From positions 9,105-73,104 of the forward strand of contig CALJVH010000024.1 of assembly GCA_937974645.1 (NCBI GenBank): a stretch of DNA of 64,000 nucleotides. Reading direction: 5' to 3'. This document shows positions 24,863 through 42,114 of this stretch, in pieces (positions within the stretch are counted from its first letter, which is position 1; every line of letters begins with the position of its first letter). The notes below the pieces were generated by a model, which saw nothing but the letters and a program-made list of their open reading frames with translations, searched no databases and was not told the origin of the DNA. The DNA comes from an uncultured archaeon. GTDB lineage: Archaea; Thermoproteota; Nitrososphaeria_A; Caldarchaeales; Wolframiiraptoraceae. Position numbers and translations under genes: made by a program.

Positions 24863-25288
24863 TTGTCCGTTGGCGGAAGTTTGGCGAGCTTAGCCCTACT
24901 CATTCCAACGGAAAAGCTAGATAGGCTACATATTGCGGCGAATTTAACCGCGGCAGCTGCTTCAATGGGATGGAGCGTGCACCTCTTCTTCACCTTCTGG
25001 GGCCTGCTGGCCTTGGTTAAGGGAAGGGAGCCTTCAGGCATTACCGGCGATTACATGGCATATGAAAGCTCCTTAAAGAAGGCTGTTGAGTCTGGGGTAA
25101 TGCCCAGATGGGCTGATCTAATAAGGCAGGCGAAACAGCTGGGAGATGTAAAGATTTACGCTTGCTCAGCTACCATGAACCTCCTCTCGATAGATAGAGA
25201 TCAGCTTGAGGATTTTGTTGATGACGTGGTCGGCGCCGCGACATTTCTATCTATAGCCGAGAAATCGGATGTATCCCTAGTAGTCTAA
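24863..25288 (+). CDS. DsrE/DsrF-like (DsrE2/COG2210-type) sulfur-relay protein
   Basis: HLFFTFWGL and the conserved Cys context KIYACSATMNLL. 141 aa, TTG start. It lies directly upstream of a TusA-like gene. Confidence 0.65.
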   Translation: MSVGGSLASLALLIPTEKLDRLHIAANLTAAAASMGWSVHLFFTFWGLLALVKGREPSGITGDYMAYESSLKKAVESGVMPRWADLIRQAKQLGDVKIYACSATMNLLSIDRDQLEDFVDDVVGAATFLSIAEKSDVSLVV

Positions 25289-25305
25289 GGCGAGGTGAGC
25301 ATAGG

Positions 25306-25539
25306 TTGGAGGAGGATAGGGTGGTTCACGTGGTTGATGCAAGATATCTTTCATGCCCGGGTCCACTGCTCGCTCTAGTGAAGAAGTTAAATGAGGTACG
25401 ACGGGGAGGAATTATAAAACTCCTAGCAACAGACCCAGCAACGCCCAGGGATGTGAAGGAGTGGGCTGAAAGAACAGGACACAAACTCCTTGAGTATAAA
25501 AAGGTCGAGCAGGTCTTCGAAATCTACATCGAAGTTTAG
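25306..25539 (+). CDS. tusA: TusA/SirA-like sulfurtransferase
   Basis: 77 aa with the hallmark DARYLSCPGPLL (CPxP) motif. Confidence 0.8.
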   Translation: MEEDRVVHVVDARYLSCPGPLLALVKKLNEVRRGGIIKLLATDPATPRDVKEWAERTGHKLLEYKKVEQVFEIYIEV

Positions 25540-25542
25540 AGG

Positions 25543-26121
25543 GTGAGAGCATGTCAGCCGCTAAGGTTCTCAAAAGAAGAGCATGAGGTGATTAAAGTGG
25601 CTTTGGACGTGCTTGAAGAAGTGTGTCGTAGATTGGAGTCTGGACAAGACGTTGATGCGGATCACCTTGAGAAGATTTTGGAATTTATCAAGGTTTTTGC
25701 GGATAAGTGTCATCATGGTAAAGAGGAGGATGTTTTGTTCCCGGCGATGGAGGAAGCTGGCGTACCGAGAGAAGGTGGACCTATTGGCGTGATGCTTATG
25801 GAGCATGATCTTGGCAGGGGGTTTGTGAAAGAGCTGACTGAGGCTGTTAAAGCATATATGGTGGAAGATGAGAATGCCATCAAAAAGATAGTTGAAAGCG
25901 CTAGACGATACGTGAACCTTCTGAAAGATCACATTTACAAGGAGGATAACATACTTTATCCATTGGCTGAGAGGATCTTATCCTCAGAGAAGCAGAGCGA
26001 GCTCTTAGAAAAATTTGAAGCAATTGAGTATGAAAAAGTCGGGGCAGGAGCTCATGAAAGATTTCACGCATTAGTTCATCGATTAAAAGAATTCCACCTT
26101 CCTGAAGTCAACTTTTATTAG
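25543..26121 (+). CDS. Hemerythrin-like (HHE cation-binding) domain protein
   Basis: H/E-rich repeats: EEHEVIK, CHHGKEEDVLFP, MLMEHDLGR, HIYKEDNILYP. A 3-nt gap follows tusA. Confidence 0.7.
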   Translation: MRACQPLRFSKEEHEVIKVALDVLEEVCRRLESGQDVDADHLEKILEFIKVFADKCHHGKEEDVLFPAMEEAGVPREGGPIGVMLMEHDLGRGFVKELTEAVKAYMVEDENAIKKIVESARRYVNLLKDHIYKEDNILYPLAERILSSEKQSELLEKFEAIEYEKVGAGAHERFHALVHRLKEFHLPEVNFY

Positions 26122-26473: not shown

Positions 26474-27061
26474 CTAGCTTCTCCTATCTTTCCACGCCTT
26501 GGCAATCCTCGTGATGAGGGTTGCAACGGAGACGGCATCCTCTCCCAAGAGAACGAAAAGAGGCTCTTTTCCCATCACGGCAGTCTCATAAAATATCCTC
26601 GGAATGAATCCATAACTATCTAAAAGGAACTTTATTTTCCAAGGTATGGATGCTCCCTCCGCTCTTGATATATCTTCCGGCTCCTTGGAGCGGTCCACGA
26701 GGCCGAAGCTGATGTTGTTCTCCTTAGCCCATGTCTTAAGCCATGAAGCTAGTTCTTCGCTCCACGCGAAGTTGATTCCGGACCTGATCTTTTCATCGAA
26801 TTTCATCACTTCTAGGACTATCCTAGCCATGTGGCTGGATGCTCCGAAAGCTGGATACCCGCAAGCCCTTGGTCTTCCATCCACCTTGGTGATCCTGCCA
26901 TCTATCCCCGCCACATCTCTGATGTCTTTAGCATTTGGGAGAGCGTAAACGACATTTACTCTGACCTCCGGTATTAGGTCCACGAACTCGGGACAAGCTT
27001 CCAAGATTTTGACCGCCCTTACAAGATTTCCCAATACCCTGTCCATCTCATCCAGACTCAA
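26474..27061 (-). CDS. ThiN-like domain protein (archaeal thiamine-phosphate synthase / ThiR ligand-domain family)
   Basis: IPEVRVNVVYA...DVAGIDGRI...FGASSHMARIVL...VDRSKEPE...MGKEPLFVLLGEDA matches my recollection of the ThiN (PF10120) pattern. It is the last gene of the 30698-to-26474 operon. Confidence 0.55.
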   Translation of the reverse strand: MSLDEMDRVLGNLVRAVKILEACPEFVDLIPEVRVNVVYALPNAKDIRDVAGIDGRITKVDGRPRACGYPAFGASSHMARIVLEVMKFDEKIRSGINFAWSEELASWLKTWAKENNISFGLVDRSKEPEDISRAEGASIPWKIKFLLDSYGFIPRIFYETAVMGKEPLFVLLGEDAVSVATLITRIAKAWKDRRS

Positions 27062-27068
27062 AATGGCA

Positions 27069-28103
27069 TCACCGCCTCAAAGTGCCAAAGTATGCTTCCC
27101 AGAATGGATCGACTTTGACCGGCTTAAGATCCTCCTCTGAACCATCACTCTCAATAATCACTCTATTTCTAGATCTAGTGAACTCGCCTATAACTGCTGC
27201 CGAGATCTTCTTGCGCTTAAGAGCGCTCATTATTTTTCTCACGTTATTTTTGGAGGCGGAAATTAATAGCGTCCCCTCGCTTATAGATATCAACGGATCT
27301 ATTCCGAAATATTTGCATATCTTTTTAGCCGGCTCCGGAATCGGTATCTTCTCCTTGTAAACCCTTACTCCAACCCCAGAGGCTTCGGCCATCTCATAGA
27401 TGGCGTTAAGCACTCCTCCTTCCGTCGCATCATGCATTGCGCGGCAGTATCTTGCTGCCGTTAAGGCGTCCTCCACAACGCTCATCTGGAAGATTAATCT
27501 CTTGGCCTCTTCCAGCACCTCTGAGCCCAACACGTGTCGAAGCTCTTCCTTGGCTTGGTGAGCGAGTATCCCTGCCGCTTCTATAGCCGCCCCCTTAGTT
27601 ATCAGCAACGCATCACCTGGCCTGGCATTTGATGATGGCCTGAGGTCACTTTTTCTCCCGAATCCTATGACAACACATCCGCCATTAAGCGGATAACTTA
27701 TCCCGGGATACACCCCGGTGTGGCCGCCTATAATGGATATCCCTAGCCTCCTGCACTCCTCATGTATTTGAACCCAAATAGATTGAAGAGTTTCGTAGGA
27801 GGTTCTGGGAGGTAGTAGCAATGATATGAGCATGTATCTCGGCTTGATGCCTAAAACAGCAACATCACTTGCGCATATGTGCACTATGGCCCATCCAAAG
27901 TAGGGCATCAGAACGGGCATTCCGAATGTCGGATCTTCGGCCGCGACCATAACAAAATCCCGAGATACCTTTACCGCGGCAGCATCAACTCCATGGGCAG
28001 GACCTAATAAAATCCTCCGATCCCGCCTACCAAGCTTCGGGAGTATGATTTCGTCAAATACTCTCTTATCCACTTTGCCGATCTTGGGCAGCTCAATGCT
28101 CAT
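27069..28103 (-). CDS. AIR synthase-related protein (PurM superfamily, closer to HypE/SelD than to ThiL)
   Basis: KIGKVDKRVFDEIILPKLG, GVDAAAV, ASDVAVLG..P and IIGGHTGV motifs. 344 aa. There is no N-terminal Cys/Sec where SelD has one. Confidence 0.6.
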   Translation of the reverse strand: MSIELPKIGKVDKRVFDEIILPKLGRRDRRILLGPAHGVDAAAVKVSRDFVMVAAEDPTFGMPVLMPYFGWAIVHICASDVAVLGIKPRYMLISLLLPPRTSYETLQSIWVQIHEECRRLGISIIGGHTGVYPGISYPLNGGCVVIGFGRKSDLRPSSNARPGDALLITKGAAIEAAGILAHQAKEELRHVLGSEVLEEAKRLIFQMSVVEDALTAARYCRAMHDATEGGVLNAIYEMAEASGVGVRVYKEKIPIPEPAKKICKYFGIDPLISISEGTLLISASKNNVRKIMSALKRKKISAAVIGEFTRSRNRVIIESDGSEEDLKPVKVDPFWEAYFGTLRR

Positions 28104-28109
28104 GCAGTC

Positions 28110-29195
28110 TCACATACCCTTTTCGCAGTCTAATCGAATCGTGGCAATGATGTTTTTATAAATCTCTAATGCTTGCTCCCTCGAACTGGCACCCTCAATG
28201 ATAGCTATACCACTCTTCAGCAAGCTGATCTTGAGGTTTCCCCCATACCTAAAAGTTAATCCAAGTTCTCCTAAGATGATAGGCTCAACCTTGTGCTCCC
28301 TTATTATATGTGAGAAAACTTCAGGCGGTAGCTTCATCGATTTCCCGGGATTTATGATGAAGGTCGCAACTCCCTCTCTTTCGCAAACCTCCTCCACCAT
28401 CGGATACTTTTTCGCTTCTTCCCGTATTTTCATTTTCTCCCCGCATGCGGGGCATCCACTAACCCTTTTCACCGGTATAAATTCCATGGACAAGCTCTTG
28501 AGATCGCAGAATAGCAGCTTATCCTGCAATATGGAGCTGGAGTGGATGAGGTAGTTCGTCGCCTCTGAAACTTGAATGGCTGAGATTAGCTGAAGTATTG
28601 CTGGATGAACTCCAATAACCGAGCACGTTGGAAGATCTTCATCAACAACATTAGCGTATAAGCATTCTAGGCAGGCGGTCTCCCCTGGAATTATCAGTGA
28701 TGCAACACCGTATGTTTGGATGGCCGCTGAAAAGAGGTAAGGAGTCCTAACTTCTAGGCACGCCCTATTTATTGCCCTTCTAGTAGTTATGTTATCCAGC
28801 CCATCGATTACCATATCAACACCACTTACCACATCTCTCGCTGTAGTTTCATCAACATATATTGGGAGTGGGTCAACCTCGATGTATGGATTTAATTCCT
28901 TGAGCCTTTTTGCCGCGACCTCCACCTTTGGATATCCAATATCCTTGTAGCTATAGAGGTGTTGCCTGTGAAGATTCGATTTCTCCACAACATCCCTGTC
29001 AACGATCCTTATGTACCCGACCCCCATAGCAGCTAGGCTCACCACGGTTGAGCAACCGAGCCCCCCGATACCTATCACGGCCACTCTCGCCTTCTTCAGC
29101 TCCTCCTGGCCGCCAATACCTATCTCAGGCAAGACTATTTGCCTGGAGTAAAGCTCTATCTCCTCATCACTGAACTCCATCCTTCTCAACCTCAT
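28110..29195 (-). CDS. E1-like ThiF/MoeB-family adenylyltransferase with an extra, non-rhodanese C-terminal domain
   Basis: YSRQIVLPEIG, the nucleotide loop VIGIGGLGC, two CxxC pairs (CLEC at 175, CPAC at 248) and Cys191 in PTCSVIG. Residues 262-361 form an additional domain. The start overlaps the upstream stop codon as ATGA. Confidence 0.8.
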   Translation of the reverse strand: MRLRRMEFSDEEIELYSRQIVLPEIGIGGQEELKKARVAVIGIGGLGCSTVVSLAAMGVGYIRIVDRDVVEKSNLHRQHLYSYKDIGYPKVEVAAKRLKELNPYIEVDPLPIYVDETTARDVVSGVDMVIDGLDNITTRRAINRACLEVRTPYLFSAAIQTYGVASLIIPGETACLECLYANVVDEDLPTCSVIGVHPAILQLISAIQVSEATNYLIHSSSILQDKLLFCDLKSLSMEFIPVKRVSGCPACGEKMKIREEAKKYPMVEEVCEREGVATFIINPGKSMKLPPEVFSHIIREHKVEPIILGELGLTFRYGGNLKISLLKSGIAIIEGASSREQALEIYKNIIATIRLDCEKGM

Positions 29196-29467
29196 CCGCC
29201 AGCCACTGATGGTATTATCGATATTTCATCATTATCTCTTAACTCGGTTTCCATCCCATTCAGAAGTTCAGCGTTTCTCCCATTAATGTATACACTAAAG
29301 ATGCTTCTAAGTCTTCCATTAGAATCCAGTAGCTTAGATCCAAGCTCCGGCCTTATCGAGATTAGAGCGTCTATAACATCCTTCAGCATTGAAGCTTCCA
29401 TCATGATCTCCTTACTGTGCCCCGGAATTGCCAGCGCTCGTGGTAACACGAGCTTAACTAATGGCAA
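29192..29467 (-). CDS. Ubiquitin-like MoaD/ThiS-family sulfur-carrier protein ending in Gly-Gly
   Basis: The C-terminus is ...LRDNDEISIIPSVAGG followed by the stop codon. The probable TTG start at 29467 gives 91 aa beginning MPLVKLVLP and overlaps the ThrC-like stop by 14 nt. The 107-aa track ORF is probably over-extended. Confidence 0.75.
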   Translation of the reverse strand: MPLVKLVLPRALAIPGHSKEIMMEASMLKDVIDALISIRPELGSKLLDSNGRLRSIFSVYINGRNAELLNGMETELRDNDEISIIPSVAGG

Positions 29468-30698
29468 CCTTCGCCACCTCCATAACTCTCTTAAGGCCCT
29501 CACCCGTGGGCTCAATCATAATTGAAGGAGCTACTCTATTCAAGATCGTATGCGGAGCTTTGAGACCGCTTCCGGTGACGAGGCAAACCGTCGTTTCATC
29601 CCTCGAAATAAAACCATGCTCAATAAGTCTCGTTAGAACGGCTACGGAAACCACTCCTCCAGGTTCCGCGAATAACCCCTCAAGCCTAGCTAGATCATGA
29701 ATAGCCTGTAGTATCTCATCGTCAGATGCGGCCACAGCAGCTCCACCACTTCTCCTAATGGCCCGCAGAGCATATACGCCATCACCGGGCTCGCCTATAG
29801 CCAAGCTCTTTGCCACAGTTTCCGGCCTTCCAACAGGAGTTATCCTCTCTTTATCCTCCTCAAACGCTCTAACAATCGGTGAACAGCCGAGCGGCTGAGC
29901 TCCGAATAACCTAGGCTCAGAGTCTACTAATCCCAGCTCCCTCATTTCTCTAAATCCTTTGCCGACCGCCGTTAGAAGGGCGCCACTGGCCATGGGAATA
30001 ACAACATTATCAGGCACATTCCAGTCAAGCTGCTCACATATCTCGAACGCTATAGTTTTCGACCCTTCAACATAATATGGCCTTAAGTTTATGTTAACTA
30101 TGCCAGTGTTACTTTCCTCAGCGAATCTAGATGCGATCCAGTTTGCCTGATCGTATGTTCCAAGAACTGATATAAGGACGGCACCATACGATAAAGCATG
30201 GGAGAGCTTTTCTCGCTCCACATTTTCGGGCACGAAGATGTAGCACGGTAGATTCGCTCTAGCTGCATGAGCAGCAGTGGCGGCCGCCAGATTACCCGTT
30301 GAAGCACATCCGACGGCGTTTAATTGGAATTCCACGGCCTTAGCTACCGCGACATTAGCCGGCCTATCCTTGAAGGAATGGGTCGGATTAGTAATATCCT
30401 CCTTAATGTAGAGATAGCGAATTCCAAGCTGTCTCCCAAGCCTCTCTGACCTTAATAAGCCGGTGAAGCCGGCTCCGAGAGAGAAGATGTTCTTCTCGTC
30501 TACGATGGGAAGAAGCTCGAAGTAACGCCATAAGCTCCTTATCCTCTGTGAAAACACGTCCCTTGACAAATCCAGTCCATCGAGTTCATAGATGACCTCC
30601 AGCGGGCCGAAACACTCTTCACAAAGATTGTGGAAAGCGGGCTCATATTCCCTTCCGCACTCCCTGCATTTTAGGGCGAATCTTCTCAGCGAAGCCAC
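29454..30698 (-). CDS. Threonine synthase-family PLP enzyme (ThrC or a MetM-like homocysteine synthase)
   Basis: 414 aa. N-terminal Zn ribbon CRECGREY..CEEC, the PLP lysine context PTHSFKDRPA, and GNLAAA/ASGAL motifs of the Trp-synthase-beta fold. Confidence 0.75.
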   Translation of the reverse strand: MASLRRFALKCRECGREYEPAFHNLCEECFGPLEVIYELDGLDLSRDVFSQRIRSLWRYFELLPIVDEKNIFSLGAGFTGLLRSERLGRQLGIRYLYIKEDITNPTHSFKDRPANVAVAKAVEFQLNAVGCASTGNLAAATAAHAARANLPCYIFVPENVEREKLSHALSYGAVLISVLGTYDQANWIASRFAEESNTGIVNINLRPYYVEGSKTIAFEICEQLDWNVPDNVVIPMASGALLTAVGKGFREMRELGLVDSEPRLFGAQPLGCSPIVRAFEEDKERITPVGRPETVAKSLAIGEPGDGVYALRAIRRSGGAAVAASDDEILQAIHDLARLEGLFAEPGGVVSVAVLTRLIEHGFISRDETTVCLVTGSGLKAPHTILNRVAPSIMIEPTGEGLKRVMEVAKVAIS

Positions 30699-30889: not shown

Positions 30890-31360
30890 TTATGGCAGCG
30901 CGTAGCCTCCATCTATTATTATGTTCTGCCTCGTTATGAAGTCTGATTTATCGCTCGCTAGAAAAAGCATTAAATAGGCGCCTTCTTCCGGCTTCCCGAA
31001 CCTGCCGAGGGGAATAGCTTGCCTTATCCATTTATAGGTCTCTTCGTTCAAAGCTTTTATGCCTATGCTTCAATGGACCCTGAAGATATAGCGTTCACGC
31101 TTATGCCATATTGAGCTATCTCCAGAGTTATTGTCCTAGTGAGTCCTGCTATCCCGGCCTTGCTCGCTGAGTAATGGACTAGATTCGGAAAGCCCGCTGT
31201 GGATCCCGCGACTGAGGCTCATCTTTGGAAGAACTGCTCTAGCGAAGTTGAAGGCTTCCTCGAGGTTTATATCGAGGGTTACTATCGCCCTTATCACTTA
31301 AGTCGAATATCACAGCGATATAACAACGTCATAATTTAGGTACCCTTTCTTTTGTCCCGG
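30890..31360 (-). pseudogene. Short-chain dehydrogenase/reductase remnant (N-terminally truncated and frameshifted)
   Basis: My translation recovers VIRAIVTLDINLEEAFNFARAVLPKM, then [46 protein letters not shown] followed by stops. In another frame it recovers [39 protein letters not shown] and a stop. There is no Rossmann GxxxGxG part and no ORF of 60 aa or more in the track. Confidence 0.65.
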
Positions 31361-32646: not shown

Positions 32647-33147
32647 TTATAGCATCAACTCTCGGTATGGGATATTCATATCAAATTGTATCTCAGATAT
32701 GTGGAATGCTTTTCCGTGGAACACCACGATATGGCGAGTGGTTTTCGGTGGTAAGAGCTCACCCCTCAGCCCGGCATTCAAGACTAGATCCTTTGAAAGG
32801 TGTTCCCCTCCTCTCCAGCTCAGGACCATGATATTGGGGGAGCGATAGCGCACAAGAAGACATGGAGCTCTTTTGCAGCCCAATCTCTTTAGGGCATCAA
32901 CCCTATGATGCCCATCTATGATAATCAGAGTCTCACGATCAACTACTATCGGCTTCCTGATGAGGCCGCATGACCTAATGTCACCGGCGATCTCTTTGAC
33001 AAGTCCTGGGTCAACGCACTCGTGAGGCCTCAGAATGCTTATAGGTAATATCGCCACGCTGGACGATAGCTCCCGGAGGATATGCTTAAAGCCGTCATTG
33101 TTCACGTATTCCTCAGCGGGCCCGAAGAGAATCATGTTTATTCTCAT
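32647..33147 (-). CDS. ParB/Srx-fold protein with an intact DGHHR motif (candidate SerK-like kinase)
   Basis: LRPHE...IRKPIVVDRETLIIIDGHHRVDALKRLG is the ParB N-terminal/sulfiredoxin-fold signature. 166 aa. It is divergent from a CysK-type gene that carries a paralogous N-domain. Confidence 0.6.
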   Translation of the reverse strand: MRINMILFGPAEEYVNNDGFKHILRELSSSVAILPISILRPHECVDPGLVKEIAGDIRSCGLIRKPIVVDRETLIIIDGHHRVDALKRLGCKRAPCLLVRYRSPNIMVLSWRGGEHLSKDLVLNAGLRGELLPPKTTRHIVVFHGKAFHISEIQFDMNIPYRELML

Positions 33148-33230
33148 TTTTTGTCATATAACTATGTAATATAAATTTTTCCCACAAAACTTTATAGCAT
33201 GTTATCCTCAGCTTTCTCAAGGTCAAGAGG

Positions 33231-34562
33231 ATGGTACATCCAAATGAAATAAAGGTCGCAGGTCTGGCATCATTGCGAAGGATCTTCGAGGTGGATCTAG
33301 CTCTCCTCATGGAGGCTTATGGGCGCCTTTTGAAGAATCGACGCCTCGATAAGCCTCTGATAGTCGATAGGGATACGTGGGTGGTAGTTGGCGGCGTCGA
33401 GGTTCTTGAGGCACTTGATCAGCTTTCAGCCCACAAAGCGCCCGTTCTACTGGTTGGCCAGGATCAGCTCGTGATCGAGCGATTATCTGGAGAGAAACTT
33501 ACATTGAATGATTTAATTGAAGAACATCGTACTAAGCGGAGCAGGTTATCACTCAGAGACTTCAGGATTGAATATCTGTTTGATGTTCCATCCATAGATG
33601 TTCCACTGGATGATCTATGCGAAAGCACGAGGCTCGATAGACGTTCTCTCAGGGTTTATGATGACACTTTATCCCTGCTCGTGGAGAATTGGCCGACACC
33701 GCTCGTAAAGCTCAAATCCTTCTCATCTGATGGGAGGTCAGTTTACGCGAAGCTGGAGTCGTTCAACCCGCTCAGCAATAGCGTAAAGGATAGGATTGGC
33801 TGGTCCATGATAATGGATGCTCTGAGCCGCGGGGCGCTCGGAGACTTTCTATATGAGGCCACATCTACGAATACCGGAATAGCCCTGACCTCAATAGCGA
33901 ACGTGCTGGGAAGGAGGGTCAAGCTCTTCATTCCGAAGACAATTCAGAAGGCCAGTGACATTTTCTTGAAAGTCCTCGACGCGGAGGTCATCAGGGTTCC
34001 CGTTAGCCTAACAGTAGAAGCTATCTCCGAGGTCGATGCATTAGCGAGGAGGGACTGCGCAGTACATCTGAATCAGTTCGAGAATGACGCCAACTTCAAG
34101 GTTCACCTCAAGTATACTGCAAGGGAGCTCGACCAGCAGCTAGAGTCCGTCGGAGTCAAGCCCGACTACATTATCGGCGGGCTCGGAACATCCGGCCACA
34201 TAAGCGCCATTTCACTTTACTTCAAGGGCAAGTATGGCGACGGCGTTAAGATATTTGGGGTCCAGCCAGCCCAAAACCAAGTGATCCCAGGGATACGAAG
34301 AATCGAGTCTGGAATGAAGTGGATTCACATGGTTAAGCTTGACGGAATAATAGACATAACACTGGACGAAGCCATTGAAGGGGCAATTGAGGTCGCGCGA
34401 AGAGAAGGCCTCCTAATAGGCCTGAGCGCCGGAGCGGTCTTCAAGGCGTTCAAACGACTCTCTCCAGAAAAGGGGAACGTAGTCTTAGTATTCCCCGACA
34501 GTGGTTACAAATATGCAGAGCAATTCGAGGACTATTTCAAGAGAATTGAACGGCCAGAATAG
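33231..34562 (+). CDS. Fusion protein: degenerate ParB/Srx-like N-domain plus a cysteine synthase / O-phosphoserine sulfhydrylase-type PLP domain
   Basis: The C-terminal roughly 290 aa carry TPLVKL, the PLP lysine SVKDR, STNTGIAL and GLGTSGH. The N-terminal roughly 150 aa align to ORF 32647..33147 (LDKPLIVDRDTWVVVGGVEVLEALDQLSAHKAPVLLV against IRKPIVVDRETLIIIDGHHRVDALKRLGCKRAPCLLV). Confidence 0.7.
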   Translation: MVHPNEIKVAGLASLRRIFEVDLALLMEAYGRLLKNRRLDKPLIVDRDTWVVVGGVEVLEALDQLSAHKAPVLLVGQDQLVIERLSGEKLTLNDLIEEHRTKRSRLSLRDFRIEYLFDVPSIDVPLDDLCESTRLDRRSLRVYDDTLSLLVENWPTPLVKLKSFSSDGRSVYAKLESFNPLSNSVKDRIGWSMIMDALSRGALGDFLYEATSTNTGIALTSIANVLGRRVKLFIPKTIQKASDIFLKVLDAEVIRVPVSLTVEAISEVDALARRDCAVHLNQFENDANFKVHLKYTARELDQQLESVGVKPDYIIGGLGTSGHISAISLYFKGKYGDGVKIFGVQPAQNQVIPGIRRIESGMKWIHMVKLDGIIDITLDEAIEGAIEVARREGLLIGLSAGAVFKAFKRLSPEKGNVVLVFPDSGYKYAEQFEDYFKRIERPE

Positions 34563-35040: not shown

Positions 35041-35148
35041 GCCGGGGTCCCATAGTCTGGTAGTGGGTCGGCCTGGAGACTTTTGCGTTTTGGACTGGAT
35101 AGCCGATGCCCCTTCCGGGGCGCGTGGGTTCAAATCCCACCCCCGGCG
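35041..35148 (+). tRNA. tRNA-Ser (anticodon GGA) with a canonical-position intron
   Basis: Folded by hand. The acceptor stem GCCGGGG pairs with CCCCGGC, and the discriminator is G. The D arm is CCAT/GTGG with GG in the loop. The anticodon stem TCGGC pairs with GCCGA only after a 22-nt insert is removed, and the loop is CTGGAGA. A long variable arm (GCCCC-TTCC-GGGGC) is present. The T arm is GTGGG-TTCAAAT-CCCAC. No CCA is encoded. Confidence 0.85.
35079..35100 (+). other. tRNA intron (about 22 nt, between positions 37 and 38; the boundary is ambiguous by 1 nt)
   Basis: The 3' half of the anticodon stem (GCCGA, 35102-35106) lies 22 nt beyond the anticodon loop. I did not verify a bulge-helix-bulge fold. 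Confidence 0.65.
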
Positions 35149-35329
35149 CACAGCTATCATTTCCAGTCTGTTAAGCCTTTTCCACACGTAATCTTTACAG
35201 CTGATTTAAAATCGCCACTCGTCGCTATGCAATGATTTGTACCGGCTGAAAACCGATTCGGTGGGAGATATTCTATTTCATGGAGGTATTGCTTCTAGTG
35301 TAAGGTTCATTGTTGCAAGGGCTCCAGCT

Positions 35330-36313
35330 CTATAGATGGTTAAGGTTATAGTATCGCCTGGCTTCCCATGCTCCTCTAAATATGCCAAAAGATTGACTAT
35401 CCCGAATATATTTTTGTCCATCTGAGAGAGAAATTAGGGTAGTTCTAGCCTTGAGTCCGGCAGATGAAGTCAGACTGCCCTTTTCAACATTAGTTATGAG
35501 GAAAACTCGAGCATCTGGGAGATCCATGGGCTTAGCTATCTCAACGTCCACATCAACTCCCGAAATACTGATCCATGGGTGCTGATACTTTCCAGTTTCT
35601 ATTAGCGATTTAGCAACTTTAGTCACCATGTTCGAGAGTATGGCGAATCCTATTCCTGAAAATTCTCAGGTCTGGGAGTATATCGCTGTTGTAACGCCTA
35701 TAACTCTGCCGGAGTAGTCTAGTAAAGGTCCTCCGCTGCTTCCGGGGTTTATTGCCGCATCGAATTATATTACATTAGGAATAATTCTGCCCTCAATAGC
35801 TTCTAGGCATCTATTAAGTTGACTAATAACTCCCGCAGTCAAGCTTGCGGCGAGCTCGTAAGGATTTCTTACAGCGGTTACAAATTGTCTAATCTTGAGT
35901 GTAAAAGAATTTCTCAAGATCAAAGGTTTAAGTATCTTACCTTCCGGCTGTATATTCAACACCAATATGGATCCACTCTTGTAATCGTGGCCTTAAACGA
36001 GCTTTTTATCAAGAGAGAATGCATTAATTCCAATAGCATTCTCAACGACGTAGTAGTTTGTTACAATGTGCCCCAGTTCATTGTATACGAAGCCTGATCC
36101 TTGACGCAATGCATAAATCTTTCCGAAAATCGTCTCCACGACCACCGTTGCTTTGATGAGGACTATGGAATCTTTCACCCTTTTATAAACAAGCTCTGGA
36201 GTGGTTAGGTTTTGCTGCCCTGCTTGACTGGAGATGTTCATCTTAAAAGAGTCAAGATCGTGCTGAATTCCAAATAATCCACTATGGATTTCATTCAATC
36301 TATTCTGACTCAC
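35330..36313 (-). pseudogene. HtrA/DegP-type trypsin-like serine protease, inactivated by in-frame stop codons
   Basis: Three track ORFs (35993..36313, 35765..35965, 35330..35629) share one frame. Reading through gives GSGFVYNELGHIVTNYYVV ... V(TAA)GHDYKSGSILVLNI ... NVI(TAA)[32 protein letters not shown](TGA)EFSGIGFAILSNMV. The GxSGGP serine motif is present, and the catalytic His position reads Tyr. Confidence 0.75.
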
Positions 36314-36571
36314 AAAAAATTACTGTGCTAAGCTAAAGAAGTTTTGGTTAGATAATTAATACGCCGAGAATTGAGGCGAGAGAAAGTGTAAAAGTCATTG
36401 CGAGCAGAAGGAAGTTTTCTTCATCGTCGCTCGAAATTTGATTTTATTCTGTGAGGGTAAAAACCTTCTCATTCTAGACTAGTGTTTCATGAACGTTTCA
36501 TGAAGTTCCTTAATACAGAGTTTTTCTCGATGGTTTCTGCAGTGTTGAGAATGAGCCTTCAAGAACACGCG

Positions 36572-37273
36572 ATGGTGAATGAACAAGGCGAGGCGATTAT
36601 CGAGCTAGTGAACGTTAGAAAAGTCTACGTTTCTGATGGAGTCTCAACAGAGGCTTTGAGAGGTGTTACGCTGATGATTAAAAGAGGGGAGTTTGTAGCT
36701 ATAGTTGGCCCATCAGGTTGCGGTAAATCCACATTGTTACATATCGTGGGTGGGCTTGATAGACCGACGAGCGGCAAGGTAACAGTGGATAACATATGTT
36801 TCAATAAGCTCTCCGATGACGATTTAGCTAGAGTGAGAAATGAAAAAATAGGATTCGTTTTCCAGTTCTATAACTTGGTTCCACACCTCTCCGTTTTTAA
36901 GAACGTTGAATTACCATTAATTGTTAAGGGTACCCCACCTCGCGAGAGAAAGGAAAAGGTTCTGAGCGTTATTGATGAAGTTGGATTGGTTGATAAGGCG
37001 TATTCTAGGCCTACGAGGTTGAGCGGCGGAGAGCAACAGAGGGTCGCAATCGCCAGGGCGTTAATCAATGATCCTACAATAATACTAGCGGACGAGCCAA
37101 CCGGAAACCTCGATTCCAGAAACAAGATAGTGATAGCGGAATTATTTAGGAAGCTTAACGAGAGAGGTAGAACAATACTGGTGGTTACTCACGATTTTGA
37201 GGTCGCCTCATATGCGAGGAGAATTCTGCACATTAGGGATGGTAAAATCGAGCGGGAGGAGGTGAAATCATGA
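36572..37273 (+). CDS. ABC transporter ATP-binding protein, MacB/LolD-like
   Basis: Walker A GPSGCGKST, signature LSGGEQQRVAIARAL, Walker B ILADEPTGNLD. I preferred the internal ATG at 36572 (MVNEQGEAIIEL). The track ORF starts at the GTG at 36482. Confidence 0.85.
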   Translation: MVNEQGEAIIELVNVRKVYVSDGVSTEALRGVTLMIKRGEFVAIVGPSGCGKSTLLHIVGGLDRPTSGKVTVDNICFNKLSDDDLARVRNEKIGFVFQFYNLVPHLSVFKNVELPLIVKGTPPRERKEKVLSVIDEVGLVDKAYSRPTRLSGGEQQRVAIARALINDPTIILADEPTGNLDSRNKIVIAELFRKLNERGRTILVVTHDFEVASYARRILHIRDGKIEREEVKS

Positions 37274-39339
37274 ATCGGAGTCTAGCATTATGCATCATCT
37301 CACAAACGCTGATAATACTGTCGCTGATAACCCCATGCATAAGGGCCGAAACAGGAACAATAGAAATAATAGATGTTCATTGGGGCACATCTGAAAAAGA
37401 ATGGGCGGCGATGAGGGGTGACAAAGCGACACTAATAATCAAATTCAGAAGCTTAATTGAGGATGAAAAAATCTGCGGCCTGAAAGTGATTTTATGGCCG
37501 GTCGACCTTTACAGGCCCTTCCCATTCGCTAGTGTAAAAAATGGGAGTATCGTAACATATACTGATCAGCAAATAAGCTTTGGGGATAAGGCTGAAATCA
37601 CCTTTGACGTAAAAATTAAGGATGACGCCATGCCTGGAACCTATGAAGCCTATCTCTACTTCTTCTACTATGATTGCGGAGATCCAGAGATTCCACTAAT
37701 AATGCGGTTGCAAAAAATAAACATTGACGTTTGGCCTCTTCCAGAATTTAGGTTGCTTAACATAAACTGGCTTAGTAATGAGGGTGTTCAGGTTAATATT
37801 GGGCCCGGAGATGTAAACAGAATACTGTCCGTTACGTTTGCCGTTTCGAAATATTATGAAGTTTCCAATATAGTTGCAACCCTTTACCTTGACGAACACT
37901 TCAGCAATCTTACAGGCGGAAAGGAAGTGAAGTCAAGCTATACCGGACTTATAAGTGAGGGCGAAAGCTTCACGCTAAGGTTCCCGCTAAATGTGAACAC
38001 TGACACTTCGCCTGGCACATATACCCTGAAGCTGGTTATGGAATACTATGATAAATGGCTGACCCAGCAATCTCAAGAAATCTTAATCCCGATCACGGTA
38101 TCTGGTAGCAGCAAGCTCGATCTTTCAATAGAAATCCCTGCATTAACAATTGGATCAACCTCAAACATGAGTATCAAAGTCACTAATGTTGGAAATGCGC
38201 CGATATACTCTCTTAAGCTGACCATTTCTTCGGAAAACTTAGTGGTGGTTGATGGAGAAGTTGATGTCGATGAGCTGCAGCCTGACGACACGTTAAACCG
38301 CTTCTTCTCGGTATGGGTTCCGGTCACATTATCTGAGGGAACATATTCCATTTCAGTTCAAACGGAGTATATTGATTCAAACGGTGTTAAGCAGACCTTA
38401 TCCAAGACTATTAAAGCCTATGTTAAGTCGCAGCCAACGCTCAGCCTGTCAGGGTACACAAAGACTCCCGAGATTGTTTTAGGGGAGAGTCAGAATCTCG
38501 AAATAGTTGTGGAGAACAATTATAACTCCCCAATAAAAGATGTAAGTATTAAAGCAATTTTTGAGGGCATGTCATTGGTATCAGCGAGGGATAGCCTCTT
38601 TTTCTTTGATGAAATCCCTGCTAAGAGTTCTGTTAAGTTAAAAATCCCTGTAACTGCTCCGCCTTCAGCATCGATAGGGACTAATTATGTAAAATTATCA
38701 GCCACTTACCGTAGCCCTTCTGGAAACCTTAGAACTGATGAGATCTCCATTCCAGTAGTAATCAAGCCGGATCTGAAGCTCGAGATCGCCAGCCTCACGT
38801 TCTCCTCCACCTTCGCAGCCCCGGGGGAATCCATTGACATATCAGGCGACATATATAACAGGGGTCTCTCAGCAGGTAAGCTATGCGAGGTTAAAGTGGG
38901 AGCGTCAAGTCCGTTAATCGTAACCGAGGACTCAAGAGATTATATCGGTGATATTTCATCTCTTTCTAAAGCATCGTTTACCGTGACCATCGATGTGGCT
39001 GAGAATGCAAGGCCAGGAAAATATTCAGGCGCTATCATTGTTTCCTGTAGCGATTCATTCGGAAATCTTTATCAGCTTTCAAGGGAATTTGAAATACAGG
39101 TAACGCAAGGCTTCACTTTTCCAAGTCTCACGTATGGAACAATAAGTCCGCCACAAAGAGAAAGTACTGCGGCACGAACGCGTGTCACAACCACCGAAGG
39201 ATTAAGTTATCTATCGATGTTACAACGCCCAATAGCGATTTTACTAATAGTATCCATCATAGCGGGGGCCATAATCGCGTTCTTGTTTGTAAGAAGAAGA
39301 TCGTCGAAGAAGAGGAGACAGGAGAATGAGGCTACTTGA
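37270..39339 (+). CDS. Secreted, C-terminally anchored multi-domain protein with CARDB / COG1361 (S-layer-domain-like) repeats
   Basis: N-terminal signal-like segment, then five recurrences of a PGxYxhxh..Y.D motif (PGTYEAYLYFFYYD, PGTYTLKLVMEYYD, EGTYSISVQTEYID, IGTNYVKLSATYRS, PGKYSGAIIVSCSD). NxG strands are present (VTNVGNAPI), and there is a C-terminal TM helix plus a basic tail RRRSSKKRRQ. The ATGA start overlaps the ATPase gene. Confidence 0.65.
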   Translation: MNRSLALCIISQTLIILSLITPCIRAETGTIEIIDVHWGTSEKEWAAMRGDKATLIIKFRSLIEDEKICGLKVILWPVDLYRPFPFASVKNGSIVTYTDQQISFGDKAEITFDVKIKDDAMPGTYEAYLYFFYYDCGDPEIPLIMRLQKINIDVWPLPEFRLLNINWLSNEGVQVNIGPGDVNRILSVTFAVSKYYEVSNIVATLYLDEHFSNLTGGKEVKSSYTGLISEGESFTLRFPLNVNTDTSPGTYTLKLVMEYYDKWLTQQSQEILIPITVSGSSKLDLSIEIPALTIGSTSNMSIKVTNVGNAPIYSLKLTISSENLVVVDGEVDVDELQPDDTLNRFFSVWVPVTLSEGTYSISVQTEYIDSNGVKQTLSKTIKAYVKSQPTLSLSGYTKTPEIVLGESQNLEIVVENNYNSPIKDVSIKAIFEGMSLVSARDSLFFFDEIPAKSSVKLKIPVTAPPSASIGTNYVKLSATYRSPSGNLRTDEISIPVVIKPDLKLEIASLTFSSTFAAPGESIDISGDIYNRGLSAGKLCEVKVGASSPLIVTEDSRDYIGDISSLSKASFTVTIDVAENARPGKYSGAIIVSCSDSFGNLYQLSREFEIQVTQGFTFPSLTYGTISPPQRESTAARTRVTTTEGLSYLSMLQRPIAILLIVSIIAGAIIAFLFVRRRSSKKRRQENEAT

Positions 39340-40597
39340 CGTACTGTATCTAGCGTTCTCCGCTCTAAGATCTAGGAAGCTCAGGACAACACTGACCATA
39401 CTTGGGATGACCATTGGTCCAGCCCTCTATGTTGCGGCAATCGCATCAACTCAAGGATATGGAGAGGCATTAACACGCAGCCTACAGACGCTAGGTGCTA
39501 ATGTCATTCAGATAATGTCAATGCCGGGAGGGCCGGGGGGTGGAAGCCGGGTGGAATTAACTGATAAAGTACTTCAGAAGTTGTCAGAGGTTGATGGAGT
39601 TGCTACGGTAGTCCCAATGTACTCCATATCCAGCGCTACAATCAGGATTAAAGGTACGACGGTGGAGGTGTCTCCGGGGGGAGAGACGTACAGAATTATT
39701 GCTGTGGATCTGAAGCTTCTTGACGACATTTTCAAAGGGCTTCAGCTAGGTGAAGGGAATCTTTCTGGGACTGGTAGTTCCATAGCAGTGATAGGCGCGA
39801 AGATTTCAAAGCCCGATAACTCAGATCTCCCGGAGATAAATCTCGGCGATGCGATAACCATAGAAGTAACTTCAAGTGGCGGGGAAAAACACGCAATCAC
39901 CGTAAGGGTAATCGGTATATTAAAGGAATATGGGCAGGGTCTTTTCTTCAACCCGGATACAACGATATTTATACCGTTAAGAGCTGGAAAAAGATTGACG
40001 GGCTTATCAACGTATAGTCAGGTGTTCATAATAGCTAGAGATACAAGCTATATTCAACAAATCCAGACCGAGATAACAAATGTTATTGGCAGTAATGTTA
40101 GAGCATTTTCACCGCAGCAAATAGCGCAAACAATTGAGCAGACGATGGGGCAGTTTTCATCATTCCTGGCCTCAATATCCTTTATGTCATTCATAGTCGC
40201 ATTTCTGGCTATAATGACGACAATGTTCACATCGGTCACGGAGAGAGTTAGGGAGATCGGAATTCTGAAAGCAGTGGGATTCAGGACAAAACATATCCTA
40301 GGATTGTTCCTCACAGAGGCTGTGTTGATAGGGCTTATAGGAGGAGCGCTAGGCATTACCGCGGGCGTTATCGGGGCTCATTTCTTCTACCTGCCTTTTG
40401 GGAACATTAGCGCACCATTCGGGCAGCCTGGAAGAAGTCAAGTAGTAACTTTTTCCTTACAGGTAACTCCAAAAATAACCCTTGACCTATTATTGACGAC
40501 ATTGGCGATGGCCATCATGATAGGGTTGCTAGCGGGCCTGATCCCAGCTTGGAGGGCGGCAAAATACCGTCCAGTGGAGGCGCTGAGATATGAGTGA
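39326..40597 (+). CDS. ABC transporter permease, FtsX/MacB family with a large extracytoplasmic domain
   Basis: N-terminal LRSRKLRTTLTILGMTIG, an extracytoplasmic loop of about 230 aa, and a C-terminal FtsX module (REIGILKAVGF...). Overlaps the upstream gene by 14 nt. Confidence 0.8.
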   Translation: MRLLDVLYLAFSALRSRKLRTTLTILGMTIGPALYVAAIASTQGYGEALTRSLQTLGANVIQIMSMPGGPGGGSRVELTDKVLQKLSEVDGVATVVPMYSISSATIRIKGTTVEVSPGGETYRIIAVDLKLLDDIFKGLQLGEGNLSGTGSSIAVIGAKISKPDNSDLPEINLGDAITIEVTSSGGEKHAITVRVIGILKEYGQGLFFNPDTTIFIPLRAGKRLTGLSTYSQVFIIARDTSYIQQIQTEITNVIGSNVRAFSPQQIAQTIEQTMGQFSSFLASISFMSFIVAFLAIMTTMFTSVTERVREIGILKAVGFRTKHILGLFLTEAVLIGLIGGALGITAGVIGAHFFYLPFGNISAPFGQPGRSQVVTFSLQVTPKITLDLLLTTLAMAIMIGLLAGLIPAWRAAKYRPVEALRYE

Positions 40598-41315
40598 GGA
40601 AGGTCCGGGAAATGATTACTGGAAAAAGAATCTTAAAGCTATGCTTTCTTCAAGAAAAACGAAGTGGATAATATTGGGGTGCATCATTGTTGTCGCATTA
40701 ATTACATCTACAATTATGATATACGATTACTTTGCCGAGAAAAGTTTAAGGGAGAAAAAGGATCTTGAAATGCTACTAGACCTACTGGAAAAAGAAGTTA
40801 AAGAAATTGAAGAGAATAGATCCATATATGGGCCGCCTCCCCCGAGAGTTGACGTTCAGGATGCTAGGATTTTATTAGATAAAGCTCGACAACACTCCAG
40901 AAGGGGAGAATATGATCTTGCATGGCTGAATATTAAAAAACTAATGTTCATGTTACGCGAGTACTTCCTTCAACCAGGTATAAACGTCATTGATGAAGAA
41001 GCCGCTATGAAATGCATTCTCTTGGGAAAGATTGAGAGAATTAAACGCTGGATAGACATCTTCATGGAACTTTCCGAAAAAACATGCGACGAAAATGTAA
41101 AGGATTTATTATTAAACGCTTCAAATACTTTGAAGCAGATAGTTAAAGAAGCTGAACAGCTTGTCGAAAAGGGCTCTTACCAAGAGGCTAAGATCAAATT
41201 GGATAAAGCGTTTAAGATAATTAATGATATTTTGAAATCTCTAAAACCCAATATACCACCACCCCCACCTCCGAGGGAAGGGATTATGCGAGCTCCACCT
41301 CATTTCTCCGATTGA
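40590..41315 (+). CDS. Membrane-anchored helical / coiled-coil protein with a proline-rich tail, function unknown
   Basis: A single N-terminal TM helix (WIILGCIIVVALITSTIMIY), then a K/E-rich helical region, GPPPPR, and C-terminal IPPPPPPREG. Overlaps the FtsX gene by 8 nt. Confidence 0.5.
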   Translation: MSEEGPGNDYWKKNLKAMLSSRKTKWIILGCIIVVALITSTIMIYDYFAEKSLREKKDLEMLLDLLEKEVKEIEENRSIYGPPPPRVDVQDARILLDKARQHSRRGEYDLAWLNIKKLMFMLREYFLQPGINVIDEEAAMKCILLGKIERIKRWIDIFMELSEKTCDENVKDLLLNASNTLKQIVKEAEQLVEKGSYQEAKIKLDKAFKIINDILKSLKPNIPPPPPPREGIMRAPPHFSD

Positions 41316-42114
41316 CTTTCACAACTCGAACCAATCCTCTTCTCTCAAGTCTTCTAACAACCCTCCAAACGGTAGTCTTAGGGAGATGGGTCAAAGCTCT
41401 AATATCTGATTCAGAAACTCTCCTCCTTTTTCTAATTATCTCCAAAATTCTCTTCTCATCTTCTGAGAGATCATACAAGCCTCTCCTAAACCTCCTCACA
41501 AATATTATCGTAGAAAGTGCAGCAACGAAGCCTCCTAGTGATCCAACAAGAATAAGGACGGGAAAATTTTGTTGCGCATTTTCATTAAAAGAAGTCTCAC
41601 CGACTCGCATTATATATTCTATCCTCCAGTATCCAGGGCTTAGAATAAGCTTCAGTAAGCCCCCCTCACTTGTTATTGTCCTTGGGATGTCAGTCAAAGA
41701 GAGTATCATACTTTTACTCGGCAGTAAAATTGCGGCCTCCATCGGTAGATACAATTCTAGAATCCATAAAGAGCCATTTTTAAATGTCAGAGCATCAGTA
41801 TCATAATAGATTATTACCTCTTGCAATGAGTCGTAATGAATAACCAATTTGTCTGCCGTCAGATCATAATTAAGAAGGGTTCCATCTTCCCTTAGCACTA
41901 TGAGATTTTCCACATCATTAGTAAGTAAATTGACAGTAACGTTTCCCATAGACTTGTCAGGAAAAATCTTTTCTTCTACATGCACCACTCCATCTTCGTA
42001 GACCCTTAAAGTCAAACTAGGCATGTTGACCCCCAAAACAGAAGAAGCCGAAGAGAGCATAATGAGTAGAAGCAGCAAAAACACCAGGCGTTCTTCCGTG
42101 GCGCTTCTAGCCAT
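41284..42114 (-). CDS. Membrane-tethered winged-helix (TrmB/MarR-like) regulator with an extracytoplasmic domain
   Basis: Signal/TM segment LVFLLLLLIMLSSASS, an outside domain of about 170 aa, a TM helix FPVLILVGSLGGFVAALSTIIFV, then a cytoplasmic wHTH EDEKRILEIIRKRRRVSESDIRALTHLPKTTVWRVVRRLERRGLV. Confidence 0.6.
   Translation of the reverse strand: MARSATEERLVFLLLLLIMLSSASSVLGVNMPSLTLRVYEDGVVHVEEKIFPDKSMGNVTVNLLTNDVENLIVLREDGTLLNYDLTADKLVIHYDSLQEVIIYYDTDALTFKNGSLWILELYLPMEAAILLPSKSMILSLTDIPRTITSEGGLLKLILSPGYWRIEYIMRVGETSFNENAQQNFPVLILVGSLGGFVAALSTIIFVRRFRRGLYDLSEDEKRILEIIRKRRRVSESDIRALTHLPKTTVWRVVRRLERRGLVRVVKVNRRNEVELA

Follow-up and report, generated by a model that had tools for sequence, protein, structure and literature searches.

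A divergently transcribed gene pair, here called gene A and gene B, was analyzed in a 64,000-nucleotide (nt) stretch of DNA from an uncultured archaeon of the Caldarchaeales (contig CALJVH010000024.1), referred to below as the window. Gene A (32647..33147, minus strand) encodes a short SerK-like protein of 166 amino acids (aa), a predicted free-serine kinase designated module 1. Gene B (33231..34562, plus strand) encodes a 443-aa protein in which an N-terminal domain related to gene A, designated module 2, precedes a pyridoxal phosphate (PLP) enzyme. An initial annotation, made from the letters of the DNA, had proposed that the pair turns serine into phosphoserine and then into cysteine, and that the kinase fold was duplicated with one degenerate copy fused to the sulfhydrylase.

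The open reading frame (ORF) at 32647..33147, in which a ParB N-terminal/sulfiredoxin (Srx) signature had been noticed, was confirmed at 166 aa, and its translation carries ...IRKPIVVDRETLIIIDGHHRVDALKRLGCKRAPCLLV. An alternative start at 33135, four codons inside the longest ORF, is used in the public call of an identical protein (P0121, 162 aa). The start codons of A and B are 83 nt apart in the longest ORFs, as first reported, and 95 nt apart with the database start of A. Direct reading of the AT-rich, 83-nt divergent intergenic region (33148..33230) revealed TATA-like elements facing both genes, TTTATAGC towards B and TTTATATT, on the minus strand, towards A. The region is presumed to hold back-to-back archaeal promoters. 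GAGG lies immediately 5' of the gene B ATG. In a scan of species-representative genomes the nearest relatives of gene B, at 77-79% identity, were found in metagenome-assembled genomes (MAGs) of Candidatus Wolframiiraptor (Caldarchaeales, formerly 'Aigarchaeota'). These orthologues have the same divergent A/B arrangement, and the stop-to-stop ORFs abut or overlap.

No Pfam family matches gene A at E <= 0.01. The best NCBIfam match is the SerK model (6e-17), with SbnI next, and the best sequence matches in the PDB are Thermococcus kodakarensis SerK (Tk-SerK), the P. furiosus orthologue 1vk1 and SbnI (1e-11 to 3e-04; 5x0b 1e-11). Gene A aligns with SerK in two pieces, residues 34-112 with SerK 21-103 and residues 119-145 with SerK 205-231. 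E43 in the P-H-E of A residues 41-43 (nt 33019..33027) aligns with the Tk-SerK catalytic base E30 in K-P-H-E30, the position altered in the SerK mutant chains 5x0e and 5x0j (E30A, E30Q). A GxxR-type nucleotide motif, D-G-H-H-R, occupies residues 78-82 (nt 32902..32916), and P-P-K-T-T-R-H occupies residues 133-139 (nt 32731..32751), within the second aligned piece. Among 73 members of the module 1 family E43 is present in 73/73, D78, G79, H81 and R82 are invariant or present in 72/73, and P133, K135 and H139 are invariant.

The fold of gene A was modeled with AlphaFold2 (AF2), giving a predicted local distance difference test score (pLDDT) of 94.3. The top nine Foldseek matches of this model are SerK, 1vk1 and SbnI structures (E 6e-08 to 5e-06, template modeling (TM) score 0.55-0.65). 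ParB, Noc and sulfiredoxin rank behind them (E >= 7.6e-04, TM about 0.36). Sequence and model therefore support a SerK-like protein rather than a DNA-binding ParB. Assignment of gene A to the DNA-binding ParB and nuclease clades, which together with a lack of kinase activity had been named at the outset as refuting the proposal, was rejected on the fold ranking, the absence of a DNA-binding domain and the in-frame fusion to an enzyme in relatives. Serine phosphorylation is its predicted activity. The short form of the kinase (132-172 aa) is a large family, with at least 472 protein clusters from many archaeal lineages recovered by profile search. Its members are annotated as ParB N-terminal domain protein, Spo0J, transcriptional regulator or hypothetical protein.

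Module 2 spans residues 1 to about 135 of gene B (33231..33635, plus strand) and was delimited as a pseudo-SerK domain by BLASTP, hhalign and AF2/Foldseek. Residues 1-150 of B have no Pfam or NCBIfam match. The alignment of A with the N-terminus of B claimed earlier was reproduced by BLASTP of A against B residues 1-153 (E 5e-07, 32% identity over 74 residues). Comparison of the module 1 and module 2 family profiles by hhalign extended it to 131 columns, the full length of both (99.4%, E 1.3e-21). As judged by these profiles, the similarity is far beyond chance. Against the PDB the module 2 profile matched only SbnI (0.0014) and SerK (0.05). The AF2 model of module 2 (pLDDT 89.5) likewise returned SbnI, SerK and 1vk1 as its top nine Foldseek matches, with SbnI leading (E 8.5e-08 to 1.7e-05, TM 0.59-0.68) and generic ParB and Srx domains far lower. 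The N-terminus of B thus does resemble the ParB/Srx fold, and both modules align with SerK sequences and structures, the comparison that the initial annotation had called for. Single sequences detect little of this. Residues 1-150 or 1-153 of B gave no meaningful PDB match, only EchA19 at E 0.2, and a single-sequence search of 1.84 billion proteins with the B N-terminus returned 9 representatives. Module 2 diverges too fast for single-sequence methods, and profiles are therefore needed.

The kinase residues are lost from module 2. GGVEV (B residues 54-58, nt 33390..33404) stands in the DGHHR position, F19 stands at the position of the catalytic glutamate, I113 at that of the C-terminal histidine, and the PPKTTRH segment reads SLRDFRI. 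Across 113 module 2 sequences the E43 position is M, V or F in 94 and the H81 position is glutamate in 96; arginine at the R82 position is found in 0/113, and the H139 position is always aliphatic. Bathyarchaeial module 2 retains EAGLKGPKLPPKSF, similar to the kinase PPKTTRH segment. Module 2 has a conserved signature of its own, consisting of P42, G55, E57, L62, L64-L65-S66, P71 and F111. Against the three closest orthologues, module 2 has a ratio of nonsynonymous to synonymous substitution (dN/dS) of 0.06-0.13, compared with 0.09-0.11 in module 1 and 0.07 in the PLP domain; saturation of dS makes these values approximate. Because the catalytic and nucleotide-binding residues are all replaced and purifying selection nevertheless persists, module 2 is best described as a conserved pseudoenzyme, a pseudokinase that is neither a kinase nor a decaying remnant. 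Profiles, models and residue patterns together argue for the proposed duplication, with the degenerate copy fused to the sulfhydrylase.

The remainder of gene B, residues ~139-443 (33645..34562, plus strand), is a fold-type II PLP domain of the Aeropyrum pernix O-phosphoserine sulfhydrylase (ApOPSS) type, as indicated by Pfam, NCBIfam and the PDB entry 1wkv. Pfam PALP covers residues 153-423 (3e-48). NCBIfam CysM and CysK families match at 1e-50 but under their cut-offs (cysM, 172.3 versus 394.2 bits; cysK, 154.4 versus 350.95 bits). On these scores the domain forms a subfamily of its own within the cysteine synthase superfamily. Its closest solved relative is ApOPSS (1wkv, 1.1e-56). The motifs first noticed by eye are all present, with the PLP lysine K186 within SVKDR (nt 33780..33794) and the GTSGH loop at residues 319-323 (nt 34185..34199), as well as the GGVEV of module 2. 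R356 in GIRR (nt 34290..34301) aligns with ApOPSS Arg297, in PGIRR(I/V)E(S/T)GM. K186, G319-H323 and R356 are invariant in a 27-sequence family alignment. Arg297 recognizes the phosphate of the substrate and lies within an insertion typical of phosphoserine-using CysKs (PMC5120207). Cysteine formation from O-phosphoserine is accordingly the predicted activity of gene B, which with its relatives is labelled merely 'pyridoxal-phosphate dependent enzyme' in annotation.

A relative of gene B is encoded by 175 species-level archaeal genomes among the species representatives scanned. Module hidden Markov models were applied to 80 loci, 78 of which could be evaluated. In 36/78 loci, mostly from Bathyarchaeia, module 1, module 2 and the PLP domain are joined in one ORF; P0029 (588 aa) is an example of such a natural triple fusion. 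A and B are functionally tied, because these relatives hold the kinase, its degenerate copy and the synthase in one polypeptide. Module 1 abuts module 2 without a linker in the triple fusions, which implies that the two modules pack together. A free module 1 gene is divergent from B in 6/78 loci of the Caldarchaeales/Nitrososphaeria clade to which the window belongs, three adjacent and three ~1.3-1.6 kb away. In 11/78 loci, from Pyrodictiaceae, Desulfurococcales and Thermofilaceae, it lies directly upstream on the same strand. Among the top 120 protein homologues there are 59 triple fusions, 52 proteins with module 2 and PLP domain, and 9 with ThiS, module 2 and PLP domain. The fusion is a large family that annotation does not recognize, and it is not rare. 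One Nitrososphaeria MAG (L039 3389..4718) encodes module 2 in one ORF and the PLP domain in another that overlaps it in a different frame, the result either of a frameshift or assembly error or of a natural split of the fusion.

The co-directional class includes a cultivated organism. In Hyperthermus butylicus (L088 5001..6666, CP000493.1) a mini-SerK gene (142 aa) precedes a co-directional PALP gene (406 aa), with 16 nt between them. Synthases of this class are ~400 aa long and are the nearest relatives of ApOPSS (1.4e-77). Their module 2 is shortened, lacking the ~40-residue EAGLKGPKLPPKSF sub-domain, and by hhalign matches module 2 at 99.5%, or at 98.4% after removal of the shared linker. 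An Aeropyrum sp. MAG (L086/L087 5001..5432) encodes a 143-aa mini-SerK unlinked to the sulfhydrylase gene. Aeropyrum may hold an unrecognized serine-kinase route to phosphoserine.

A possible sulfur donor is suggested by the fused ThiS domains and by the neighborhood. In 8/9 fusions of ThiS, module 2 and PLP domain, the ThiS part ends in PAVSGG followed by a short Ser/Gly linker. Directly after these fusions come ThiF and then cysteine-desulfurase-type genes. In two Bathyarchaeia MAGs (L083 6748..11925 and L084 6324..11501) a threonine-synthase-like (ThrC-like) PLP gene precedes the fusion and a Prok-JAB protease gene lies ~3 kb upstream; the two PLP enzymes may share one carrier. At another locus (L085) ThiF and ThiS are just upstream of module 2 and PLP domain. 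In the window a ThiS/MoaD-type carrier (29192..29467, minus strand; 91 aa, Pfam ThiS 1e-10) has a free ...VAGG end in translation. It is accompanied by a ThiF/MoeB-type E1-like adenylyltransferase, its presumed activator (28110..29189, minus strand; 359 aa, Pfam ThiF 1.8e-66), and by a 414-aa ThrC-like PLP enzyme with an N-terminal Cys-rich ribbon, identified by Pfam and NCBIfam (29454..30698, minus strand). The ThrC-like gene overlaps the ThiS gene by 14 nt. The operon-like run (26474..30698, minus strand) continues from ThrC-like, ThiS and ThiF to an AIRS-family protein and ThiN, and ThiS/ThiF are ~3.7 kb from the A/B pair. Window ThiF is 39.6% identical to the ThiF directly after the L083 fusion, and the window ThrC-like gene is 54% identical to the one directly upstream of that fusion. 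Between ThrC-like and ThiF, the window ThiS occupies the slot held in L083 by the fusion of ThiS, module 2 and O-phosphoserine sulfhydrylase. It could donate sulfur to the sulfhydrylase, to the adjacent ThrC-like enzyme, or to both. The ThrC-like enzyme, which is context outside the core pair, may be a homocysteine synthase of the MetM type, a kind of enzyme 'often misannotated' as threonine synthase (bioRxiv 10.1101/2024.10.14.618325). From gene context, a carrier-protein thiocarboxylate is a plausible sulfur donor.

These results suggest how the pair may work. Gene A, a minimal kinase of the SerK/SbnI (ParB/Srx) fold, would convert L-serine to O-phosphoserine with ATP, ADP or another NTP as phosphate donor, and the C-terminal 300 residues of gene B, as an O-phosphoserine sulfhydrylase, would swap the phosphate for sulfur to give cysteine. 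The sulfur source would be either sulfide or the thiocarboxylate of a ThiS-type carrier activated by ThiF. Module 2, an ancient duplicate of the kinase, would be a fixed non-catalytic partner that pairs with the active kinase and holds it against the synthase, and the phosphoserine intermediate would be handed over locally. In other lineages module 2 would instead tether a fused ThiS domain to the synthase. It may, in addition, help to shape the dimer of the synthase.

We think it probable that the A/B pair of this hot-spring archaeon is a two-step serine-to-cysteine unit of three modules with pseudokinase docking. The parts differ in strength. The assignment to a pathway from serine through phosphoserine to cysteine, the core of the initial annotation, is well supported by the SerK-like nature of A, the proximity of the B PLP domain to ApOPSS and the single polypeptides of 36/78 loci. 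Docking by module 2 is a tentative proposal, for which we give somewhat less than an even chance. Both enzyme activities and the sulfur donor are predictions from homology, folds, residue patterns, selection, fusions and neighborhoods. A far broader idea is that much of Thermoproteota (Bathyarchaeia, Caldarchaeales, Methanomethylicia, Culexarchaeia, Thermofilaceae and Desulfurococcales) makes cysteine with an undescribed 'cysteine synthase complex'. In it a mini-kinase and a dead paralogue fused to the sulfhydrylase would channel phosphoserine, the pseudokinase hub would also position a ThiS-type donor, and the N-terminal domain of the A. pernix enzyme would be an eroded remnant of the hub. 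Taken jointly, these propositions are speculative and on balance doubtful.

Several observations weigh against the proposed unit. Gene A scores 61.6 bits against a SerK equivalog cut-off of 380 bits and its match spans only positions 19-101 of the 244 in the profile. Missing from it is the middle region of SerK, ~100 residues long (residues ~104-204); the longer relatives P0134-P0137 do carry this insert. On sequence grounds gene A is not a standard SerK, and without the middle region and below the cut-off it may be unable to act on its own or may act on another substrate. On the side of gene B, the PPKSF remnant of module 2 is more degenerate in the clade of the window (SLRDF) than in Bathyarchaeia. 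No module 1 gene lies within ~6 kb of module 2 and PLP domain in 25/78 loci from various lineages, among them L006, L010 and L048, and the ThiS-fused forms carry no module 1 in the polypeptide. Module 2 therefore does not serve solely to dock a locally encoded kinase. The sulfur donor raises difficulties of its own. No JAMM protease was detected in the 64-kb window by tblastn with the L083 Prok-JAB protein (E <= 1e-3), nor was a cysteine desulfurase found there. Window ThiS/ThiF, in an operon with the ThrC-like gene beside ThiN and the AIRS-family gene, may serve homocysteine or thiamine synthesis. Finally, the title of a report on A. pernix OPSS states that the enzyme uses sulfide directly (reference 16 in PMC5120207).

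The same 25 loci and ThiS fusions would be expected if module 2 were a purely structural or oligomerization domain, contributing to dimer stability or thermostability, with A and B sharing a pathway but no complex. The ApOPSS-size enzymes of Desulfurococcales and Pyrodictiaceae, which keep only the shortened module 2 (99.5% and 98.4% by hhalign), agree with that explanation. For crystallized ApOPSS, too, a structural contribution of the N-terminal domain to the dimer has been discussed. However, the kinase is fused to the synthase or encoded within ~1.6 kb in 53/78 loci, it is set directly against module 2 in every one of the 36 fusions, and a paralogous fold is a classic basis for a heterodimer. 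A structural role moreover leaves the origin of module 2 from a kinase duplicate unexplained. We regard it as unlikely, while giving it more weight than any of the explanations that follow. One of these makes module 2 an allosteric sensor that binds serine, phosphoserine or nucleotide without turnover and tunes the synthase. Preservation of the SerK-like fold, the PPKTTRH-like segment of Bathyarchaeial module 2 (EAGLKGPKLPPKSF) and strong purifying selection are all compatible with a sensor. The binding residues are not: the GxxR arginine is absent in 113/113, the active-site histidine and glutamate are replaced, and the PPKSF segment has degenerated in the clade of the window. A sensor role is consequently very unlikely.

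The remaining explanations concern the enzymes rather than module 2. The PLP domain could belong to another phosphoserine-using beta-replacement enzyme, such as an SbnA-like enzyme making a diaminopropionate precursor, or could employ a different nucleophile. SbnI-SbnA already provides a known case of a serine kinase paired with a CysK-like enzyme, the NCBIfam SbnA family matches at 2.2e-32, and the CysK/CysM equivalog cut-offs are all missed. Yet ApOPSS is much closer (196 bits, with the SbnA model at 112 bits), no SbnB-like partner was found in the neighborhoods examined, and recurrent linkage or fusion to ThiS, ThiF, cysteine-desulfurase-type and JAB proteins points to sulfur transfer. An SbnA-like function for gene B was ranked low on the nearer score of ApOPSS, and a product other than cysteine is, if anything, slightly less likely than a sensor. 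Gene A, in turn, might be mainly a ParB/SbnI-like regulator of the divergent gene B and not a metabolic kinase. Divergent regulator-target pairs are common, SbnI is annotated as both a transcriptional regulator and a phosphoserine synthase, and homologues are named 'transcriptional regulator' or 'Spo0J' in the sources. The 166 residues of A, however, contain no helix-turn-helix or other DNA-binding domain, the fold is closer to SerK than to ParB/Noc, the catalytic residues are invariant, and most relatives have module 1 fused in frame to the enzyme or co-directional in an operon. A regulator is the least likely of these explanations, and scarcely credible.

The proposed two-step unit has a precedent. 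In T. kodakarensis, conversion of serine to O-phosphoserine and cysteine by SerK (TK0378) and a phosphoserine-using CysK is established (Makino et al. 2016, PMC5120207, where cysteine auxotrophy of a serK/cysK deletion strain is reported). Tk-SerK and gene A share the fold, the catalytic-base glutamate, the DGHHR-type motif and the C-terminal PKTTRH segment, and the logic of the two pairs is the same, a free-serine kinase with a phosphoserine-specific CysK-type enzyme. They differ in that gene A has 166 aa and lacks SerK residues ~104-204, whereas T. kodakarensis SerK has 242 aa. In T. kodakarensis serK and cysK do not share an operon, and neither a fusion nor a pseudokinase domain has been described there. 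Clear-cut SerK homologues were stated to be absent outside four genera (PMC5120207). Staphylococcus aureus SbnI-SbnA resembles the proposed A/B pair in that a ParB/Srx-fold serine kinase feeds phosphoserine to a CysK-family enzyme encoded nearby. SbnI, in contrast, is a 254-aa protein that also bears the annotation of a transcriptional regulator, and the pair has neither a fusion nor a dead paralogue. SbnA condenses phosphoserine with glutamate in staphyloferrin B synthesis, so that its product chemistry is unlike cysteine synthesis.

Both ApOPSS ('CysO', 1wkv) and the synthase part of B have the PLP lysine motif, the GTSGH loop and the arginine Arg297/R356. ApOPSS also has an extra N-terminal domain, with ~82 residues ahead of the catalytic core compared with ~140 in B. 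A link between this domain and module 2 is unproven, as only residues 46-62 align suggestively. The profile of the short N-domain does not retrieve 1wkv; it finds mostly designed repeat proteins, with serine kinases only at E 0.06-0.8. Nor is 1wkv among the top 50 Foldseek matches of the module 2 model. The shortened module 2 is accordingly claimed for the MAG-encoded ApOPSS-size enzymes of Pyrodictiaceae and Desulfurococcales as recognized by profile, and not for crystallized ApOPSS.

Carrier-dependent systems offer another comparison. In the Mycobacterium tuberculosis CysO-CysM-MoeZ-Mec+ system a phosphoserine-using CysM is linked to a JAMM protease and to a carrier of the ThiS/MoaD type with its E1-like activator, and the same gene set surrounds the fusions of ThiS, module 2 and PLP domain. 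In the window, by contrast, the carrier is not fused and no JAMM protease was found within the 64 kb. Mycobacterial CysM lacks a kinase-derived domain. The operon-like run of the window, with ThiS/ThiF beside the ThrC-like (MetM-like) gene, resembles the thiocarboxylate route to homocysteine through MetM, MetO and MoeZ, known as MetO-MetM from Streptomyces. Carrier use by the gene B family is suggested by gene context only. Association of a serine-activating enzyme with a sulfhydrylase has a conceptual parallel in the CysE-CysK cysteine synthase complex of bacteria and plants, where CysE docks by pushing its C-terminal tail into the active site of CysK. This is analogy and not homology. The proteins are unrelated and the docking mode is different; here the duplicated kinase fold would give the contact.

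The route through SerK and a phosphoserine-using CysK and the SbnI-SbnA pairing were already known. The initial annotation knew of no described ParB-like/CysK fusion. That statement held for the searchable, incomplete literature, in which no SerK/ParB-PLP fusion was found (including the 2025 ParB-fold survey PMC12704722, PMC5120207, GapMind 2026, Mukai et al. 2017 and the Wolframiiraptor paper), but the 175 genomes that encode a relative removed any impression of rarity. That literature likewise yielded no description of a synthase with a kinase-derived pseudo-domain, of the insert-less mini-kinase, or of triple or ThiS fusions, all of which are apparently undescribed. Cysteine routes are still listed as unknown in many archaea (PMC5120207), and this gene family would supply the missing route in Bathyarchaeia and other abundant lineages, most of them uncultivated. 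Free-serine kinases, so far an idea confined to four hyperthermophile genera, would be present in hundreds of species as a minimal form of 130-170 aa. Module 2 would represent a natural, conserved metabolic pseudoenzyme, a kinase duplicate kept as a non-catalytic partner. Pseudoenzyme domains are well studied in signaling and much less so in metabolism. The natural single-chain versions with kinase, pseudokinase and synthase, and the ThiS-fused versions, are ready constructs for questions of channeling and sulfur donation. The blindness of Pfam and NCBIfam to module 2 is a gap in annotation.

Other features of the window were recorded. The tRNA-Ser noted ~480 nt downstream of gene B is real and lies at a distance of 479 nt. 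It is a tRNA-Ser(GGA) with a 22-nt intron at the canonical position 38/39 (35041..35149, plus strand; Rfam tRNA 45.1 bits), found by ARAGORN with introns allowed and missed by default ARAGORN without introns. The presence of this intron identifies the source as archaeal. A functional meaning of its proximity was considered and dropped as no supporting evidence was found; it is probably coincidental and unrelated to the A/B pair. A few kb from ThiS/ThiF are DsrE-like and TusA sulfur-transfer genes (24881..25539, plus strand), adjoined by a hemerythrin-domain gene (~25597..26121). A second ThiF-like coding region (~52482..53063, minus strand) has 43% identity to L083 ThiF over 200 residues. Between a permease gene and the ThrC-like gene, a 53-aa ORF (30890..31051, minus strand) matches only the C-terminal end of short-chain dehydrogenases (adh_short_C2) and looks like a gene remnant. 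Three short consecutive ORFs of 99, 66 and 106 aa (35330..36313, minus strand), the last with a weak trypsin-like peptidase N-terminus (E 0.006), are possibly a frameshifted HtrA-type protease gene. The G+C content of 36000..42000 is 0.41-0.45, compared with 0.48-0.56 elsewhere, and this region holds an ABC-transporter ATPase gene and a gene for a 689-aa repetitive protein that is probably surface-exposed.

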